DNA from: an uncultured archaeon
Lineage (GTDB): Archaea > Asgardarchaeota > Thorarchaeia > Thorarchaeales > Thorarchaeaceae
Length of the DNA: 6,181 bases
Reading direction: 5' to 3'
Assembly (NCBI GenBank): GCA_964354495.1
Contig: CAYHAA010000041.1
Span: forward strand, 1-6,181
Shown: piece after piece, positions 1-6,181 of the stretch
Position numbering within the stretch: position 1 is the first letter of the stretch
Layout of the letters: each line of letters begins with the position of its first letter
Position numbers and translations under genes: made by a program
The notes under the pieces: generated by a model
The model's database searches: none
What the model was told of the DNA's origin: nothing
Seen by the model: only the letters and a program-made list of their open reading frames with translations

Positions 1-1
1 T

Positions 2-670
2 CTGAGAATCATGTTAAAGGATGATGCAGGTGCACAGCATGGGCAAGTCGGTATCGTAGACCGAAAAGGTCGTGCTGTTGCGCACACTGGCAAGGAATGT
101 ATGAATTGGGCAGGCCATATTGTCGGAAAAGGCTTCACCTGTCAGGGAAACATCTTGGCTGGCGAAGCTGTAGTTGCCAATATGGCCAGTGCATATGAAA
201 CGACTGAGGGCGATATAATCGACAAGCTCTTTGCTGCACTCAACGCAGGACAGTCTGCTGGAGGGGATCGTCGTGGGATGCAGTCTGCGGCAATACTTGT
301 GGTACGAAAAGAGGGTGGCTATGAGGGAGGAAATGATCGGTACGTCGATGTTCGCGTCGATGAACATCCTAGCCCCATCAAAGAGCTTGAGCGCATTTTC
401 AAGATATACGACATGACGCTCCTCAGCAGAGAAGACCCGAGCAACCTGCGAAGGATTGAGGGAGACCTCTCCTTGAAGATTCAACAGGCTCTCGTATCGT
501 TAGGATACTTAGATACACTCAGTGATGATGTGTTCCCTGAGAGAGCTAAGACAGCTCTTGCTGAATGGGTCAACACTAACAATTTCGAGAACAAGGCACG
601 CAATGATGGTACCATCTGGCAGAGTGTAATAGACTATCTCTTTCGAGATGCTGAGAGACACAAGACATAG
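2..670 (+). CDS. DUF1028 family (Ntn-hydrolase-like) protein with C-terminal peptidoglycan-binding-like helical domain; 5'-truncated by the window edge
   Basis: The frame is open from base 2 (ctg aga atc atg...), so the ATG at 11 is probably internal. Family-typical motifs: QVGIVDRKG..AHTGKEC..WAGH, CQGNILAG..VV..MA.AYE, L..ALNAGQSAGGDRRGMQSAAILVV, DRYVDVRVDEHPSPIKELER. The C-terminal IQQALVSLGY...ALAEWVNTNNFE segment resembles the helical domain commonly appended to this family. Stop TAG at 668-670. Confidence 0.88.
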   Translation: MRIMLKDDAGAQHGQVGIVDRKGRAVAHTGKECMNWAGHIVGKGFTCQGNILAGEAVVANMASAYETTEGDIIDKLFAALNAGQSAGGDRRGMQSAAILVVRKEGGYEGGNDRYVDVRVDEHPSPIKELERIFKIYDMTLLSREDPSNLRRIEGDLSLKIQQALVSLGYLDTLSDDVFPERAKTALAEWVNTNNFENKARNDGTIWQSVIDYLFRDAERHKT

Positions 671-838
671 TCTAATTGGCTTCGATCAACCCAATTTGAA
701 ACATAGGCAATAGGATTGGGGCCTCTATGCGTGTTCATACGGGCAGCAATCTCACACCATTTGAAAATACACATTCTCTAAAAGGAGCCACATTCCAACG
801 TGCATTATTCAATCTGATTGACTTGTGGGTGCGACAAC

Positions 839-1108
839 GTGAGCAGAGTACATGGACATATTGTCAGAGTCGATTGGTCCCTGTGCTATGGTTGTGAGAA
901 ATGTATCTTGGCTTGTCCAACGGATGTATTCGTAACGAGCAGAGATACAACAGGAAATTCCGTTGTTGATCCGATTCGGGAATCAGATTGTATTTTGTGC
1001 CTTGTCTGCGAGATTGTCTGTCCAGTTGAAGCCATCGCCGTTGAACGCCAAGGAGGCTCGGAGGATACATTACAGTCTCTGTTGCAGGGTACCAGAGAAA
1101 CACGATGA
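839..1108 (+). CDS. Ferredoxin, 2x[4Fe-4S] dicluster type
   Basis: Two complete CxxCxxCxxxCP motifs: CYGCEKCILACP and CILCLVCEIVCP. The track starts at TTG 818. I prefer GTG 839 (MSRVHGHIVRVD...) because an SD-like GGGTG (827-831) lies 7 nt upstream, but the start is uncertain. Stop TGA 1106-1108. Confidence 0.9.
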   Translation: MSRVHGHIVRVDWSLCYGCEKCILACPTDVFVTSRDTTGNSVVDPIRESDCILCLVCEIVCPVEAIAVERQGGSEDTLQSLLQGTRETR

Positions 1109-1117
1109 GAGGTCAGG

Positions 1118-2380
1118 ATGATGTTTGAAGAACTTCTTAGTGATGCAGAGAAGAAGATTAGGGATGAGGTTCGCGCTTTTGTGCGTGACAAAGTGGACCG
1201 TGAATTAATCATTGCTATGGACAGCAAGAAGAAGGAATACCCGTACGAGTTCATCAAGGTTGCAGCAAAGGAGAATCTTCTCGGCCTACGCTTCCCCAAG
1301 AAATACGGAGGAAGAGGGCTTGGCTGGGTGTCAGAGATGGTTGCGCTGGAGGAGATTGGTGTCCTAGGCATTGCACTTGGTTGTGCGTTCTCTCTTCCCA
1401 GTATTATTGGAGAAGCTATCAACAAGCATGGTACCCCAATGCAGAAGCAAGAATACCTGCTTCCTACACTCCAAGGGAAGAAGATCTGCGGAGAAGGACT
1501 CACTGAGCCTCGGGGCGGATCGGACTTCTTTGGCACGAACACAACTGCTGTGAAGAAAGGCGATATGTTCGTAATCAATGGTGAGAAGAGATTCGTGGCA
1601 GGTGGTGTTGGTGCTGACTACTTTCTGATATACACAAAGACTGACTTCACGGCAAAACCACATGAGTCGTTGAGCGCTTTCATAGTCGACAGAGACATGG
1701 GCGTGAAGGTCGAGGAGGAGTACGAGCTCTTGGGTTGCCGTGGGATGGGAGCGGCCAGAATTGTGATGAAGAATGTTGAGGTACCTGAATCCAACATTGT
1801 AGGTGACTTGAATGATGCCAATGCAGTCTTCAATACGATGATGGTGCCCGAAAGGCTCACCTCGGCTGCTGGGCCTATCGGCATGGGACGTGCCTGCCTT
1901 GAGATTGCTGTAAGGTATGCAGACAAACGAGAGGCTTTCGGTCGGCCAATTAAGAGCTATGAGGCTATCAGTTTCAAAGTTGCTGACTGCATGACTCAGC
2001 TGGATGCAGCAAGGGGTCTGGTGTATCGGGCAGCAAAGAAGGCTGACACGGGAGAGTGGTGCAGAAAAGAGGTCTCACAGGCGAAAGTATTCGCCACAGA
2101 AGCCGGCTTCAATGCTGTTCACGAGGCGATGCAGATGCTAGGCGGAATTGGATACACTGATGTCTACCCCATTGAACGACTCTATCGAGACGCACGTCTT
2201 GCGACGATCTGGACTGGCAGTAATGAAGTGCAGCGGCTAATCATTCAGAATGAGATCTTCAAGGAGATTCTCTCAGAGGACCGTTCGGACAAGCGAGATG
2301 TAGAGCTTGACACTCCTGGCGCCCACAAGACCATAGAGAAAGTCTATACTGAGGATCCTCGAAAGCACTATCCAAAGTAA
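1118..2380 (+). CDS. Acyl-CoA dehydrogenase (FAD-dependent ACAD family)
   Basis: 420 aa with ACAD hallmarks: FPKKYGGRG, GLTEPRGGSD, INGEKRFV, LLGCRG, ERL, REAFGRPI, AMQMLGGIGY, ERLYRDAR..TIWTGSNEVQRLII. SD-like GAGGT at 1109-1113; the start may be ATG 1118 or 1121. Confidence 0.96.
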   Translation: MMFEELLSDAEKKIRDEVRAFVRDKVDRELIIAMDSKKKEYPYEFIKVAAKENLLGLRFPKKYGGRGLGWVSEMVALEEIGVLGIALGCAFSLPSIIGEAINKHGTPMQKQEYLLPTLQGKKICGEGLTEPRGGSDFFGTNTTAVKKGDMFVINGEKRFVAGGVGADYFLIYTKTDFTAKPHESLSAFIVDRDMGVKVEEEYELLGCRGMGAARIVMKNVEVPESNIVGDLNDANAVFNTMMVPERLTSAAGPIGMGRACLEIAVRYADKREAFGRPIKSYEAISFKVADCMTQLDAARGLVYRAAKKADTGEWCRKEVSQAKVFATEAGFNAVHEAMQMLGGIGYTDVYPIERLYRDARLATIWTGSNEVQRLIIQNEIFKEILSEDRSDKRDVELDTPGAHKTIEKVYTEDPRKHYPK

Positions 2381-2436
2381 CGTGATATGTCAGCAAAGCA
2401 TAGATTCAAATACTAACTATAGTTAACGAATGTGGA

Positions 2437-2493
2437 GGAGCGAGTCATCTTATAATCAGCTGAACCGCTCCGACTTACAACTGCAAAGTGAGG
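2437..2493 (+). promoter_or_regulatory. Putative archaeal promoter (TTATAA at 2450-2455) inside a GGAGCG/CGCTCC inverted repeat, plus SD-like GTGAGG (2488-2493) for the 2501 gene
   Basis: The motifs are read directly from the sequence. The TATA-like box is about 45 nt upstream of ATG 2501, which fits a short leadered transcript. Function is inferred. Confidence 0.4.
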
Positions 2494-2500
2494 AAGAAGA

Positions 2501-2665
2501 ATGAGTAGTCTTGTTTGTCCGAAATGTGGCGCGAGAGTATCAGTGCCAGTTCATTGTGGGAGAGAGATGCACATCGAAGGAAATCAGCTTGTGTGCTGGA
2601 TGGGCCCTGTCTGCGGTCATCAAAGTATCCCCACCCATTGCGGAACATCTATGAAGTTGAAGTAA
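2501..2665 (+). CDS. 54-aa Cys/His metal-binding microprotein with two desulforedoxin-like repeats (not in the ORF track)
   Basis: Manual translation: MSSLVCPKCGARVSVPVHCGREMHIEGNQLVCWMGPVCGHQSIPTHCGTSMKLK*. It has an SD-like GTGAGG 7 nt upstream, ends in tandem stops TAA TAG (2663-2668), fills an otherwise empty gap, and carries the repeated pattern LVC..CG..P.HCG..M. Confidence 0.85.
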   Translation: MSSLVCPKCGARVSVPVHCGREMHIEGNQLVCWMGPVCGHQSIPTHCGTSMKLK

Positions 2666-2695
2666 TAGAGAGAGGAGCATGTGAGATGACCGTTC

Positions 2696-3238
2696 ATGAT
2701 TCTAGAGGAGATTATGAAAAGACATAGTGGCCGAGTGTTTACTGACAAACCGGTATCGGATGAGATGCTCAATTTCATATTGGAAGCGGGTCGATGGGCT
2801 CCTTCTTGCTCGAACACACAAGCCTGGAACTTCGTAGTTATTCGCGACAAGGAAGCCCTTGCTGAGGCTCATGAAGCACTGAGCCGGGGCAACGCATATG
2901 CAAAAGCTGCTCCTGTGATGATCATTGTTGCTGCAAAGGAAGATGGAGGATGCCCCATGCATGAACTCCCATACTTCGCGATGGATGTCGGTCTTGCGGT
3001 CGAAAACATGCTCCTTCAGGCAGTACATCTTGGATTGATGGGACATCCAACTGCTGGGTGGGATGAAGCTACGCTAAAGGAGATCACAGGAATACCCAAA
3101 GAGTATCGAATTGTCACTGTTGTCTTCTTTGGGTATGAAGGCGACATCACGCTCTTGGATCAGGAAGCCCGCGCCAAAGCAAGTAGACCACGTACGCGGC
3201 GTCCGTTATCTGATATTGTGCATTGGAACAAATGGTAA
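2696..3238 (+). CDS. Nitroreductase family (FMN-dependent) protein
   Basis: 180 aa with the R-x-S-x-R FMN-phosphate motif (KRHSGRVF), AGRWAPSCSNTQAWNFVVI, DVGLAVENMLLQAVHLGL..HPTAGWDE, and a C-terminal RPRTRRPLSDIVHWNKW. Confidence 0.95.
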   Translation: MILEEIMKRHSGRVFTDKPVSDEMLNFILEAGRWAPSCSNTQAWNFVVIRDKEALAEAHEALSRGNAYAKAAPVMIIVAAKEDGGCPMHELPYFAMDVGLAVENMLLQAVHLGLMGHPTAGWDEATLKEITGIPKEYRIVTVVFFGYEGDITLLDQEARAKASRPRTRRPLSDIVHWNKW

Positions 3239-3282
3239 GAGAAGGAAGTCGACTGAGTGTATAACCGATTCATCGAGTCCGA

Positions 3283-3291
3283 AAGAGTTAA
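3283..3291 (+). promoter_or_regulatory. BRE/TATA-like element AAGAGTTAA upstream of the 128-aa membrane protein gene
   Basis: Purine run followed by TTAA, 45 nt before ATG 3328. The same 9-mer recurs at 3739-3747. Confidence 0.3.
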
Positions 3292-3327
3292 TGTACCGAA
3301 GATGAACTATACAAATGAGGAGAGTAC

Positions 3328-3714
3328 ATGATGCAGCCAATCAGCACTTTGGAGATTTCAACTGTAATTCTTCCCAGCATTCTTCTTGGAGTCATGTATG
3401 GATATTCCATAGGTACGATGAGAAGTTACCGAATTGCTGGAAGAGCTGCACTCACTCTCATAGTCAGCATCATTAGTGGTGTACTTCTGTCCATTCCGCT
3501 TGCCTACTTCGTTCCAATCTCGACATTCACAATCTTGTTGTCTTCTCTTTCAGTGCTAGGTGGGACGATTCTCGGATTATTCTATAATTGGACTCCTCCT
3601 GAAGAGCCTGTACGCAAGAGCCACATCATATATGAAACGGATGACGACGAGGAATTCGATAGAGAAATCAGGGAGTCGCTGGGTGGAAAGCAGCGACCGA
3701 AAAGAGATGCATGA
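3328..3714 (+). CDS. Hypothetical small membrane protein (about 3 TM helices, acidic C-terminal tail)
   Basis: 128 aa. Hydrophobic stretches at about aa 8-30, 40-63 and 66-86, then NWTPPEEP and a charged tail ETDDDEEFDREIRESLGG. SD-like GAGGAG lies just upstream (tgaggagagtac atg). Confidence 0.8.
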   Translation: MMQPISTLEISTVILPSILLGVMYGYSIGTMRSYRIAGRAALTLIVSIISGVLLSIPLAYFVPISTFTILLSSLSVLGGTILGLFYNWTPPEEPVRKSHIIYETDDDEEFDREIRESLGGKQRPKRDA

Positions 3715-3738
3715 GAGTGGCAGGCTATTTCTCCCAAT

Positions 3739-3791
3739 AAGAGTTAAAGGGAGTAATTAGTAATGTTCTTCAGTCTGCGGTTTTTGGAGGT
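3739..3791 (+). promoter_or_regulatory. BRE/TATA-like AAGAGTTAAA (3739-3748) and SD GGAGGT (3786-3791) for the 411-aa gene
   Basis: GGAGGT lies 6 nt before TTG 3798 and supports that start. The 9-mer is identical to the one at 3283-3291. Confidence 0.4.
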
Positions 3792-3797
3792 CTACGA

Positions 3798-5033
3798 TTG
3801 CAGAGAACGCTGCCACACTTTCTTGTTATCTTCACCATAACCTGTCTACTATGGACTATGGTTCTCATGCCTGTCAGTGCTGCCCCTCCTGTTGGATGGA
3901 GTGGAGATTCAAGTCTGTCGTTCCTACTTGAGGTCAACGGAGTGAACGCCGCTGAGTCTGATGCTGCAAATCCAATTCCAATAGATGTTTCCTCTGACCT
4001 TTCAATCGAACTTCAGATCTATACTGGCACGAACCTAACGATACAGTCTGGTAGGTTCACGATGTCCTACCTTTCGATTCCGATTATCAATCAACTATTC
4101 GACCTAAGCGTGTATGGCGAGATTCCCGAGAACTATACGGCAAGCATTCTCAATGCATCAATCCCACTAGCCAGCCTTATGAGCATCGGAAATCTCAGTC
4201 TGATTTCAGGTACAATCACGGGTGCCTTCTCCTTTGTATACTCAAACTCAACCTCGCCCAGTGTGAACGGAACGGTCAGCGAGGACTTCGTTCTTCGGCT
4301 TGGGCCCACGGGCATTGCTGCCATTCTATCAGTGAGCGGGCTCATTACGGTTGGTTTCACAGTGATGTCTGTGTTCACTCTGATCATGTCCTTGGACGAG
4401 TTCCAGCAGGGAATCATGGCTGCCCGCAAGATGCGTGGTGCGACACGGGCTTCGGATGTTGGTATATTCCCACGGCCAATCGTGCTTCGCCGAAAACCAA
4501 AGAAGGGCGGTGAGAAGATTGACAAGAATGAACTTGAGTCAAGAGTCAGTAATGCTGCCGGAAGTTCTTGGGATAACAAACAATGCCCGAAGTGCGGGAA
4601 GAAATGGCCAAAGAACTCACCTACATGCGCCAAATGTGGCATTGACACAGGAAATGCCATCACCTTCTTCTCACAGGATATAGCAGAACATGCTCCAAAG
4701 GCACTGAGTATGATTAAACCAAAGTCAAAGGTCACAGTCGGTCAGCTTGGAAAGAGGCTGCATTTGAAGCCAGACAAGGCTGGAGCTCTATCCGCTGCCC
4801 TCGTAGATATGGGTGTGCTCCAGACAAAGTCCGTCAAGGTCCCTCTCAAAAAGGTGGCATTCTCGGGCATGACCTTGGCTGGAATCTATTGGTCATGGAT
4901 GCAGATGATTGGCGGAGCCACACCCGACTGGGCCACAATTCTCTTGACCACTGCTGCTGGTCTTGTTGTGTCCGTACTGATAGGCTATTTCATGAACTTC
5001 TTGGCTCGTGTGCCCAAACTCGGTTATGATTGA
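3798..5033 (+). CDS. Hypothetical membrane protein: signal peptide, sequon-rich outer domain, TM helix, C4 zinc ribbon, winged-helix-like segment, two C-terminal TM helices
   Basis: 411 aa, TTG start with a strong SD. Signal peptide ending VSA-APP (about aa 28/29). N-x-S/T sequons at N79, N112, N119, N132, N150, N157. TM at about aa 173-199. CPKCG-x9-TCAKCG at aa 263-281. VTVGQLGKRLHL...LSAALVDMGVLQT at aa 312-343. TMs at about aa 353-372 and 378-402. Confidence 0.88.
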   Translation: MQRTLPHFLVIFTITCLLWTMVLMPVSAAPPVGWSGDSSLSFLLEVNGVNAAESDAANPIPIDVSSDLSIELQIYTGTNLTIQSGRFTMSYLSIPIINQLFDLSVYGEIPENYTASILNASIPLASLMSIGNLSLISGTITGAFSFVYSNSTSPSVNGTVSEDFVLRLGPTGIAAILSVSGLITVGFTVMSVFTLIMSLDEFQQGIMAARKMRGATRASDVGIFPRPIVLRRKPKKGGEKIDKNELESRVSNAAGSSWDNKQCPKCGKKWPKNSPTCAKCGIDTGNAITFFSQDIAEHAPKALSMIKPKSKVTVGQLGKRLHLKPDKAGALSAALVDMGVLQTKSVKVPLKKVAFSGMTLAGIYWSWMQMIGGATPDWATILLTTAAGLVVSVLIGYFMNFLARVPKLGYD

Positions 5034-5159
5034 TACTGGTGTCGAGAGCCAGTTCAAAGCTTCTCTCATTAGCCCGTTCATCTCAATACATATAATATGC
5101 CAATGACTCATCATATCTTACCTGCAAGGACCATACATGCAATAGGAAATGGAAGATAG

Positions 5160-5906
5160 ATGGATCGACAAGCGAAGTACCAGAGTCATTGGGAGAATTC
5201 TGAGGTACTTGTGAATGTACCCTTCAGTGCTGCAGGTGTTGGCACGACAGTCGTCTTAACATCAAAATTCACCGGACGAATCATGCTCATGGATGTGGGA
5301 GATGGTGCTGTCCGAGATCTTCTTGACTCAACTGGAACCACCAATTTTGTGTTCGACATAGATCTCATCGCTATTACTCATGGGCATTTTGATCATGTTG
5401 GGGGTCTTCACACACTCCTTGGATTCATGAGAATGCTGGGACGAAAAGAGCCTCTCAATATTCTCATTCCCACTCACTGCGTAGAGGCGATTAGGATTAT
5501 CAAGGGTTTTCGTGACTGCTATCCTGAAACACTTCCGTTCAAAATCTGGTATCATGAGACATCTCAGGGGTCTGAGTTTGATACCGACTTCTTCAAGGTC
5601 AAGTCTTTCGGAGTCGAGCACTTTGGAACGGAGTGCAACACCGAAAGCGAGGTTCTCATGCCTGCGCTGGGTTTTAGAGTGCAAGTCGGAGAGTCTGTCG
5701 TAGCATATTCCGGCGACACGAGAGTCTGCAGTGGTGTGGAGATGGCTGTAACGAATGCTGACTTGGCAATTTTGGAGGCTACGCATCCCGTCACTCCGGA
5801 CGCCGGAGTGCGTGTTCATCTGTCTGTCGAAGAAGCTACAAAACTCGGTGAGCTGGCAAGGGCTTACATTCTAATTCATCGGATTCCTGACACTGATAAT
5901 TCATGA
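5160..5906 (+). CDS. Metallo-beta-lactamase-fold hydrolase, RNase Z/BN-like but without the tRNA-binding arm
   Basis: 248 aa. Motif I LMDVGDG, motif II ITHGHFDHVGG (HxHxDH), motif III VEH, motif IV AYSGDT, then ILEAT, VHLS and motif V ILIH. Confidence 0.88.
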   Translation: MDRQAKYQSHWENSEVLVNVPFSAAGVGTTVVLTSKFTGRIMLMDVGDGAVRDLLDSTGTTNFVFDIDLIAITHGHFDHVGGLHTLLGFMRMLGRKEPLNILIPTHCVEAIRIIKGFRDCYPETLPFKIWYHETSQGSEFDTDFFKVKSFGVEHFGTECNTESEVLMPALGFRVQVGESVVAYSGDTRVCSGVEMAVTNADLAILEATHPVTPDAGVRVHLSVEEATKLGELARAYILIHRIPDTDNS

Positions 5907-5928
5907 GAAGGACCATCTTGGTTTCTCA
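5904..5928. terminator. Imperfect hairpin spanning the two convergent stop codons (possible bidirectional terminator or processing site)
   Basis: TGAGA(5904-5908)-AG-GACC-ATCTT-GGTT-TCTCA(5924-5928). There is no U-tract, so support is weak. Confidence 0.2.
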
Positions 5929-6180
5929 AAGCACAAACTGAATGGCCCAGAGCACAATCATTCCGAATGATGCTGAAACTGGCACTGTTACTAGCCAAGA
6001 TACGACAATCTCCTTCACCTGCTTCCTTTGGACTGGGGTCTCAGAAATCCAACCTACAGCTATGAGAGCTGCAACTAGGACATGAGTGCCGCTCAGCGGT
6101 ATTCCTAGAAGTGTTCCTGCGAATATAATGATTGAAACAGATATACTAGCAGAGAGTGCAGAAGAGGGCGAGAGTGTAAC
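5926..6180 (-). CDS. Inorganic phosphate transporter, PiT/PHO4 family; C-terminal 84 aa only (5' part outside the window; not in the ORF track)
   Basis: Manual translation of the - strand: VTLSPSSALSASISVSIIIFAGTLLGIPLSGTHVLVAALIAVGWISETPVQRKQVKEIVVSWLVTVPVSASFGMIVLWAIQFVL*. This matches the PiT C-terminal pattern (L-x-P-x-x-A...G-x-P-x-S-x-T-H...I-x-x-S-W-x-x-T-x-P). Stop TGA at 5928-5926. Confidence 0.88.
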   Translation of the reverse strand, partial: VTLSPSSALSASISVSIIIFAGTLLGIPLSGTHVLVAALIAVGWISETPVQRKQVKEIVVSWLVTVPVSASFGMIVLWAIQFVL

Positions 6181-6181
6181 T

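Follow-up and report, generated by a model that had tools for sequence, protein, structure and literature searches.

The stretch of DNA analysed here, called the window below, is the whole of a 6,181-nt contig (CAYHAA010000041.1, or C41) in assembly GCA_964354495.1 of an uncultured Thorarchaeaceae archaeon. It carries a very short gene whose product, a Cys/His microprotein labelled P0001, is the subject of this report. The gene and the features that surround it are collected in Table 1. An earlier, sequence-only reading of the window had placed the gene between an acyl-CoA dehydrogenase and a nitroreductase, and the Pfam matches of both neighbours agree. At the left edge, an open reading frame at 2-670 (plus strand) encodes a DUF1028 protein with a C-terminal PG_binding_2 domain and is cut off by the contig start.

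Table 1. Features of the window, with their positions, strand and the observation on which each rests or a short remark.
Feature	Position	Strand	Basis or remark
Acyl-CoA dehydrogenase (ACAD), upstream neighbour	1118..2380	+	Pfam Acyl-CoA_dh_N/M/1
AT-rich element TACTAACTATAGTTAA, candidate archaeal BRE/TATA promoter	2411..2426	+	motif conserved upstream in orthologues
Shine-Dalgarno-like GTGAGG, 8-13 nt 5' of the ATG	2488..2493	+	GAGG/AGGT equally placed in orthologues
54-aa Cys/His microprotein CDS (P0001)	2501..2665, stop codon included	+	translation, purifying selection
Repeat 1 (residues 4-26), LVC-x2-CG-x5-P-x-HCG-x2-MH	2510..2578	+	candidate metal site C6, C9, H18, C19
Repeat 2 (residues 30-53), LVCWMG-x2-CG-x4-P-x-HCG-x2-M	2588..2659	+	candidate metal site C32, C38, H46, C47
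Nitroreductase-family flavoenzyme, 30 nt after the microprotein stop	2696..3238	+	PF00881, E 3.5e-27
128-aa membrane protein (TM128), conserved in cluster, no family found	3328..3714	+	synteny
411-aa membrane protein (TM411), conserved in cluster, CPKCG...CAKCG zinc-ribbon-like motif	3798..5033	+	synteny
Metallo-beta-lactamase-fold (MBL) protein, cluster member	5160..5906	+	Pfam Lactamase_B_2; syntenic across genera

The microprotein gene is a real coding gene and is strongly conserved. Translation yields MSSLVCPKCGARVSVPVHCGREMHIEGNQLVCWMGPVCGHQSIPTHCGTSMKLK (54 aa), exactly the frame and product quoted in the earlier reading. Among 24 orthologous coding sequences, pN has a median of 0.10 and pS one of 0.72. 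In the pairs with unsaturated dS, dN/dS is about 0.07, synonymous sites being near saturation overall; this is a signature of purifying selection. Whole-genome searches found exactly one copy in each of the 24 species representatives of the genus, and the gene is single-copy in 72 of the 76 genomes of the archaeal family to which the window belongs (f1). Eight clusters, 65-78% identical to the microprotein, came up in a word-indexed search, and one of these bears the name of a protein from a Thorarchaeota MAG. The region 5' of the gene is conserved as well: GAGG or AGGT stands at a matching distance from the ATG in all 23 orthologous upstream regions inspected, the GAGG-type ribosome-binding motif of the orthologues lying 8-12 nt 5' of the ATG, and variants of the TACTAACTATAGTTAA-type motif (ACTTAACTATAATTAAT / AAATATAGTTAATAC) are found 25-90 nt 5' of the ATG across the orthologues. 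Judged by this conservation and by its AT-rich appearance, the TACTAACTATAGTTAA element is a candidate promoter of the microprotein transcript, and may, probably, drive the nitroreductase gene too, on one transcript with the microprotein.

The protein is built from two homologous repeats. The spacings proposed for them are right (C6-x2-C9-x8-H18-C19-G-x2-M23 and C32-x5-C38-x7-H46-C47-G-x2-M51), and the duplication can still be read in the DNA, where cttgtttgt is echoed by cttgtgtgc and cattgtggg by cattgcgga. The internal repeat far exceeds chance: local alignment of the two halves scores 62 against 20.3 +/- 4.7 for shuffled sequences, none of 5000 shuffles reaching 62, and the profiles of repeat 1 and repeat 2 match each other in hhalign with a probability of 98.2%.

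Is there a second gene of this kind in the genome? A copy on contig C38 (94% amino acid identity) was considered as a paralogue and rejected, as the window aligns end to end to C38:3241-9420 at 93%. The C41/C38 pair is an assembly bubble or a second strain in the MAG and not a segmental duplication. The last 55 nt of the window (1-6181, all of C41) are identical to the start of a further contig (C47:1-55). A weak and unrelated match in the same genome, at C2:131470, is part of the zinc finger in a glycosylase of the Fpg/Nei type.

Among 1.84 billion representatives searched with a profile, 133 relatives were found, and ligand conservation was counted over 108 divergent relatives with near-full coverage. 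The eight ligand positions put forward from the sequence of the window are indeed conserved, each being Cys or His in at least 96% of the 108. In site 1, Cys is found at position 6 in 98%, at position 9 in 97% and at position 19 in 96%, and position 18 is His in 91% and Cys in another 8%. In site 2, the values are 99% for C32 and 93% for C38; position 46 is His in 85% and Cys in 9%, and position 47 is Cys in 71% and His in 28%. The methionines are similarly conserved (M23 in 97%, M51 in at least 94%). Cys and His thus replace one another at positions 18, 46 and 47. The sequence CCG appears at one or both sites in nine of the 108 relatives, these being distant members, and an HH variant of site 2 is present in 28.

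How are the ligands shared out between metals? Single modules of the form CxxC-x8-[H/C]C-x3-M occur in tandem in other proteins (P0098, P0135, P0143 and P0144), which supports the view that, as in desulforedoxin, a single repeat would be enough to bind a metal by itself. An hhalign comparison of the full domain and the rubredoxin match mentioned below both offer a cross-repeat alignment, in which C6/C9 go with C32/C38. The tandem single modules would favour one metal site per repeat over pairing across the repeats. The genomic contexts of the stand-alone metagenomic relatives are mostly too short to be read; one of them looks bacterial (ClpP, GshB, PrmA) and has no copper genes in it.

The small domain is predicted to have a definite fold. 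An AlphaFold2 model (ten sequences) is all-beta, without helices, at a pLDDT of 93. A Foldseek search of the PDB with this model found nothing at E <=0.001 (1dxg_A, a desulforedoxin, appears at E 4.4). The sequence itself has nothing above threshold in Pfam, NCBIfam or the PDB sequences, and PF00403, the HMA domain, gave no match to it in the Pfam scan. The haloarchaeal family NF041913 (HVO_2142) scores 14.2 bits (E 0.029) and so does not reach the NCBIfam cut-off of 90 bits, and a profile of the family of relatives finds rubredoxin as its best match in the PDB at a non-significant E of 0.19. The microprotein is covered by no characterised family. Public homologues are named 'hypothetical protein', with the exception of one automatic label: the orthologue P0008, a JGI record, is called 'DNA-directed RNA polymerase subunit RPC12/RpoP', which is probably an error of annotation due to a generic likeness to zinc ribbons. 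A description of the domain was not found in the literature on desulforedoxin-like proteins, on P1B metal-binding domains with YHS or on Asgard CopA. The double Cys/His domain is undescribed and is without a Pfam or NCBIfam model.

At least 14 genera of family f1 share the gene order ACAD, microprotein, nitroreductase, TM128, TM411, MBL, and the ACAD adjoins the microprotein gene in nearly all f1 loci. Within the genus, the microprotein and nitroreductase genes are adjacent and the gap between them is constant at about 30 nt. TM411 has no Pfam family; it shows 44-97% identity across genera and carries an internal zinc-ribbon-like motif, CPKCGKKWPKNSPTCAKCG. Linkage to the nitroreductase had been suggested as a feature to look for. 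It is frequent within f1, but since the nitroreductase gene is inverted in four loci (L004, L068, L074, L076), partial in one (L069) and missing from two (L070, L073), the link must be dispensable, and there is none beyond the family. Where the nitroreductase is inverted or lost, the flanking genes hold their order and strand and the microprotein persists.

What does the domain do outside the family of the window? The long relatives with an identifiable ATPase are all P-type ATPases that contain HMA and often YHS. The signatures CPC, N-x6-YN-x4-P and M-x2-SS-x5-[NS], which denote P1B-1 Cu(I) pumps in the established P1B classification, are found in these fusions wherever the corresponding stretch is present. 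The domain is joined to CopA with P1B-1 signatures in at least eight representative clusters and in many Asgard genomes, either at the N- or at the C-terminal end. Independently of this, Foldseek on AFDB matches the domain to the C-terminal end of a protein called 'heavy metal translocating P-type ATPase' (TM 0.98, 50% identity). In a survey of 301 Asgard genomes, the domain lies within CopA frames of 950-1075 aa in families f9, f22 and f24, sometimes as two tandem copies; in f1 it is always a free frame of 54-112 aa. The copies in small open reading frames that were examined in f9, f24 and f22 all adjoin copA on the same strand, some of them 2-21 nt from the copA stop. Fused and copA-adjacent forms interleave in a tree of the domain, and 19 of the 20 f1 proteins cluster together (support 92/78); the entry L057 in this tree (L057:3265-6117) is the fused CopA of f9. 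The tree, built on 55 columns, is poorly resolved and gives no direction, be it fission from CopA or fusion to it.

The CopA of the genome from which the window comes (G000:C2:123503-126106, 881 aa) has the architecture HMA-ATPase-YHS. It ends directly after YHS and the domain is missing. It aligns with residues 3-871 of a 951-aa fused CopA from another Asgard family, and residues 893-948 of that protein, which the own CopA does not have, match the microprotein at 50% identity (E 1.7e-14). No linkage to copA was found in the own genome, where CopA is on contig C2 and the microprotein on C41/C38, nor was copA seen near the microprotein across the whole of family f1; adjacency is confined to the other families. 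The co-occurrence of the two genes carries no information, because CopA (TIGR01511) is near-universal in the phylum (284 of the 301 genomes). When the microprotein and the 881-aa CopA of its genome were modelled as a complex, the score was 0.00, which speaks neither for nor against an interaction. Directly upstream of the own copA is a gene for a Ras/Roc/Arf-type small GTPase (L063:7226-7831, minus strand), and a NosD-like beta-helix protein is encoded nearby.

Not all partners are copper pumps. The protein at L058:865-2751 (G032:C9) is a P1B-2 Zn/Cd-type ATPase (CPC, N-x7-K, D-M-G) that has no HMA and in which the C-terminus is formed by a divergent version of the domain, with HHG at site 1 and HC-x2-C at site 2. 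The association of the domain is therefore with heavy-metal pumps and is not restricted to copper. In relatives of 190-260 aa it is joined to TRASH domains. Six of these, all metagenomic (P0038, P0041, P0059, P0075, P0080 and P0082), consist of an N-terminal roadblock/Longin-like region, TRASH and the double knuckle, P0082 having a Longin match at E 2e-4. The combination is itself undescribed and is possibly a metal-sensing adaptor. A further relative, P0057 (134 aa), carries the domain followed by a C-terminal segment that by eye resembles sigma-70 region 4 or an HTH; it could be a metal-responsive regulator.

P1B-1 copper pumps are loaded and regulated via small cytosolic metal-binding domains. 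P0001 would be a free-standing copy of an all-beta Cys/His domain that consists of two tandem knuckle modules, CxxC-x8-[H/C]C-G-x2-M. Three Cys and one His in each module would most likely coordinate a single thiophilic metal ion, for which Cu(I) is the first candidate and Zn(II) the second. Elsewhere among the Asgard archaea this domain forms a cytosolic, putatively metal-binding end of CopA-type Cu(I)-exporting P1B-1 pumps, or is encoded by a small gene that abuts copA. In the family of the window it would have become a separate, unlinked gene, CopA stopping just before the place of the domain. The microprotein would most likely work as a soluble partner. It may bind or buffer cytosolic Cu(I), or Zn, and then, in the manner of HMA domains and CopZ chaperones, pass the ion on to CopA or control the activity of CopA in trans.

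Three roles had been suggested for the protein from its sequence: electron carrier, metallochaperone and redox sensor. Because of the domain fusions and gene neighbourhoods with CopA, HMA, YHS and TRASH, the metallochaperone or metal-binding module is favoured over the electron carrier, and the microprotein is probably a free-standing module for handling metal. The more specific reading, a detached module that binds Cu(I) or Zn and works as a chaperone or regulator, is given a probability of about 0.5; on this reading the detached copy would still serve copper homeostasis. Several observations count against it. The f1 gene is away from copA, in a cluster that has no known copper link, and its function may have shifted after relocation. 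The near-universal presence of CopA lends it nothing, and the divergent copy on the P1B-2 ATPase speaks against copper specificity. Also, Cys3His knuckles are typical of structural zinc sites, and metal transfer need not be their role.

This last point leads to the strongest of the other explanations, that of a structural double zinc ribbon. Zn(II) at the two Cys3His sites would do no more than hold the 54-residue fold together. The protein would serve as a small adaptor, or as a regulatory subunit, of another gene product of the cluster, be it the nitroreductase, the ACAD or one of the membrane proteins. When attached to CopA, the domain would mediate protein-protein contacts or dimerization and would not deliver metal. 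The sole sequence-family signals that the microprotein gives are in fact generic, sub-threshold zinc-ribbon matches over CPKCG. The best in Pfam, to Zn_Ribbon_1, scores 18.4 bits where 25 are required and spans residues 6-12 only, and comparison of the relatives with classical zinc-ribbon families (Zn_Ribbon_1, Zn_ribbon_3, DZR and others) was sub-threshold throughout. Structural Zn sites commonly show exchange between Cys and His, which is seen here in the combinations HC, HH, CH and CC. Zinc fingers with a regulatory role are frequent among the micro-proteins of archaea, and the long conservation of the cluster together with the constant gap to the nitroreductase would fit a partner close at hand. 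The nitroreductase, however, is the partner that is inverted in four loci and absent from two where the microprotein is retained. A structural role also leaves unexplained why the domain recurs in the company of HMA, YHS and TRASH, which are metal-trafficking domains, and why it is found at both termini of the pumps. The structural explanation is for these reasons regarded as rather unlikely, though it is the one that the detached metal-handling module has most to contend with.

Could the sites hold iron instead? The domain had been called desulforedoxin-like, and the protein might accordingly be a redox-active Fe protein: a His-substituted, duplicated centre of the desulforedoxin/rubredoxin type, with two Fe-Cys3His sites per chain, which would pass electrons to or from the neighbouring flavoenzymes and on CopA could reduce Cu(II) to Cu(I). 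A precedent of sorts is Archaeoglobus fulgidus CopZ, which reportedly has a [2Fe-2S] N-terminal domain proposed as a reductant of Cu(II) to Cu(I). To examine the kinship, PF06397 was used to retrieve real desulforedoxin domains from Asgard genomes. Compared with a profile of 29 such domains, repeat 1 gives an hhalign probability of 94.5% over 24 columns with one 7-residue deletion, and the alignment pairs CxxCG and [H/C]CGxxM of the two families; repeat 2 gives 76%, confined to the HCGxxM end. An exhaustive structural search with VIA-align over 48,161 chains has at its top 1cfw_A, Ga-substituted desulforedoxin (rmsd 2.6 A, 33/36 residues), with a Z of 3.3 that is within the chance range for a fold so small. 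The CCG sequences of the distant relatives and the presence of two flavoenzymes as gene neighbours point the same way.

The Pfam desulforedoxin model, on the other hand, does not recognize the protein. PF06397 (Desulfoferrod_N; gathering score 23 bits) has no match to the microprotein at E up to 1, matches two of 52 relatives with a best E of 0.051, and in a six-frame search of 151 genomes never matched the microprotein locus. The quoted spacing of desulforedoxin, C-x2-C-x15-C-C-G-x2-M, agrees with the domains retrieved, all of which have x15 and CC; this four-Cys site, C-x2-C-x15-C-C, is absent from the microprotein, where the spacing is 8 or 7 residues and where His takes the place of Cys in about 90% of members. 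The designation as desulforedoxin-like consequently holds in part. As the 94.5% alignment joins CxxCG and [H/C]CGxxM, the resemblance reads as a genuine remote relationship, yet one that falls outside the desulforedoxin family as defined. As to iron itself, HH at site 2 in 28 of 108 relatives is unfavourable for a rubredoxin-type Fe centre, and the flavoenzyme neighbourhood is limited to one family. The genome also already encodes a canonical 40-aa desulforedoxin elsewhere (C5:144502-144600, minus strand, locus L048; PF06397 40.8 bits) with the pattern C-x2-C-x15-CC-G-x2-M, as do most genomes of the family. An iron-based redox function is thus thought improbable, more so than a structural zinc ribbon.

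That the reading frame might be a functionless conserved ORF or an annotation artefact, as its very short length could suggest, is effectively refuted by the selection and conservation data (the dN/dS of about 0.07 with synonymous sites near saturation, and the single copy kept through nearly all of the family), and is opposed also by the 133 divergent relatives with multidomain fusions among them and by the confidently predicted fold.

The preferred reading, a detached module for binding and delivering metal, can be extended to a more elaborate picture, which is held tentatively, the odds lying somewhat against it. The domain would be a previously unrecognized copper-handling module of Asgard archaea, with a His-substituted, duplicated desulforedoxin-type fold that carries two Cu(I) or a Cu(II)-reducing Fe centre. 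It would serve as a terminal sensor or donor on CopA, and in the Thor-type family would have become a detached CopZ-like chaperone that was recruited into a cluster of flavoenzyme and membrane-protein genes.

What would follow if the domain binds Cu(I)? To our knowledge, the metal-binding domains of P1B-1 pumps described so far are essentially HMA domains and His-rich tails, with a few special cases besides. Here, most of the sampled members of several Asgard families have a compact two-site Cys/His domain that is fused to CopA, encoded next to it or separate from it. Binding of Cu(I) would place it in a class of its own among the metal-binding domains associated with pumps, and the archaeal lineage closest to eukaryotes would be seen to have a soluble chaperone of a new type. 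A further consequence would be that a knuckle of the rubredoxin/desulforedoxin type can be re-tuned through duplication and the replacement of a Cys by His. With 54 residues and a confident predicted fold, the microprotein lends itself readily to spectroscopic and structural work.

Comparison with known systems brings out what is shared and what is not. With HMA domains and CopZ, the double-knuckle domain has in common its position at the N- or C-terminal tails of CopA, its occurrence also as a separate small protein, its CxxC motifs and its co-occurrence with HMA. The predicted fold is an all-beta double knuckle, whereas HMA has the beta-alpha-beta-beta-alpha-beta ferredoxin-like fold, and there are eight Cys/His residues compared with the one CxxC of HMA. 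YHS (PF04945) and TRASH (PF08394, PF24273) are likewise small Cys-rich modules, predicted to bind metal and found in archaeal copper-resistance proteins, and they sit immediately upstream of the double-knuckle domain in CopA tails and in the 190-260-aa TRASH proteins. Their motif, however, is C-x19-22-C-x3-C, there is no sequence match, and the double-knuckle domain is a separate unit that comes after them.

Desulforedoxin/Desulfoferrod_N (PF06397; 1dxg, 1cfw) is, like the predicted modules of the microprotein, a small all-beta knuckle in which CxxCG is followed by V-[C/H]-C-G-x-[ED/P]-M. In the microprotein the loop lacks 7-8 residues, the CC pair has His in place of its first Cys, and both modules are in a single chain, where desulforedoxin is a homodimer; moreover, the domain goes with heavy-metal pumps and not with superoxide reductase. 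Rubredoxin is also a small beta protein with two knuckles, and its weak profile match (E 0.19) places C6/C9 and C32/C38 on the two CxxC knuckles, but the ligand set differs and the aromatic core motif of rubredoxin is missing from the microprotein. The haloarchaeal CPxCG zinc-finger micro-proteins (NF041913) are of similar size, open with a CPxCG knuckle, and are stand-alone and archaeal; the microprotein differs from them in its second knuckle, [H/C]CGxxM, its internal duplication and its links to pumps. What is known, then, is the type of knuckle, akin to that of rubredoxin and desulforedoxin; what would be new is that such a knuckle serves P1B pumps as a metal-binding domain and, in the present case, stands apart from the pump.
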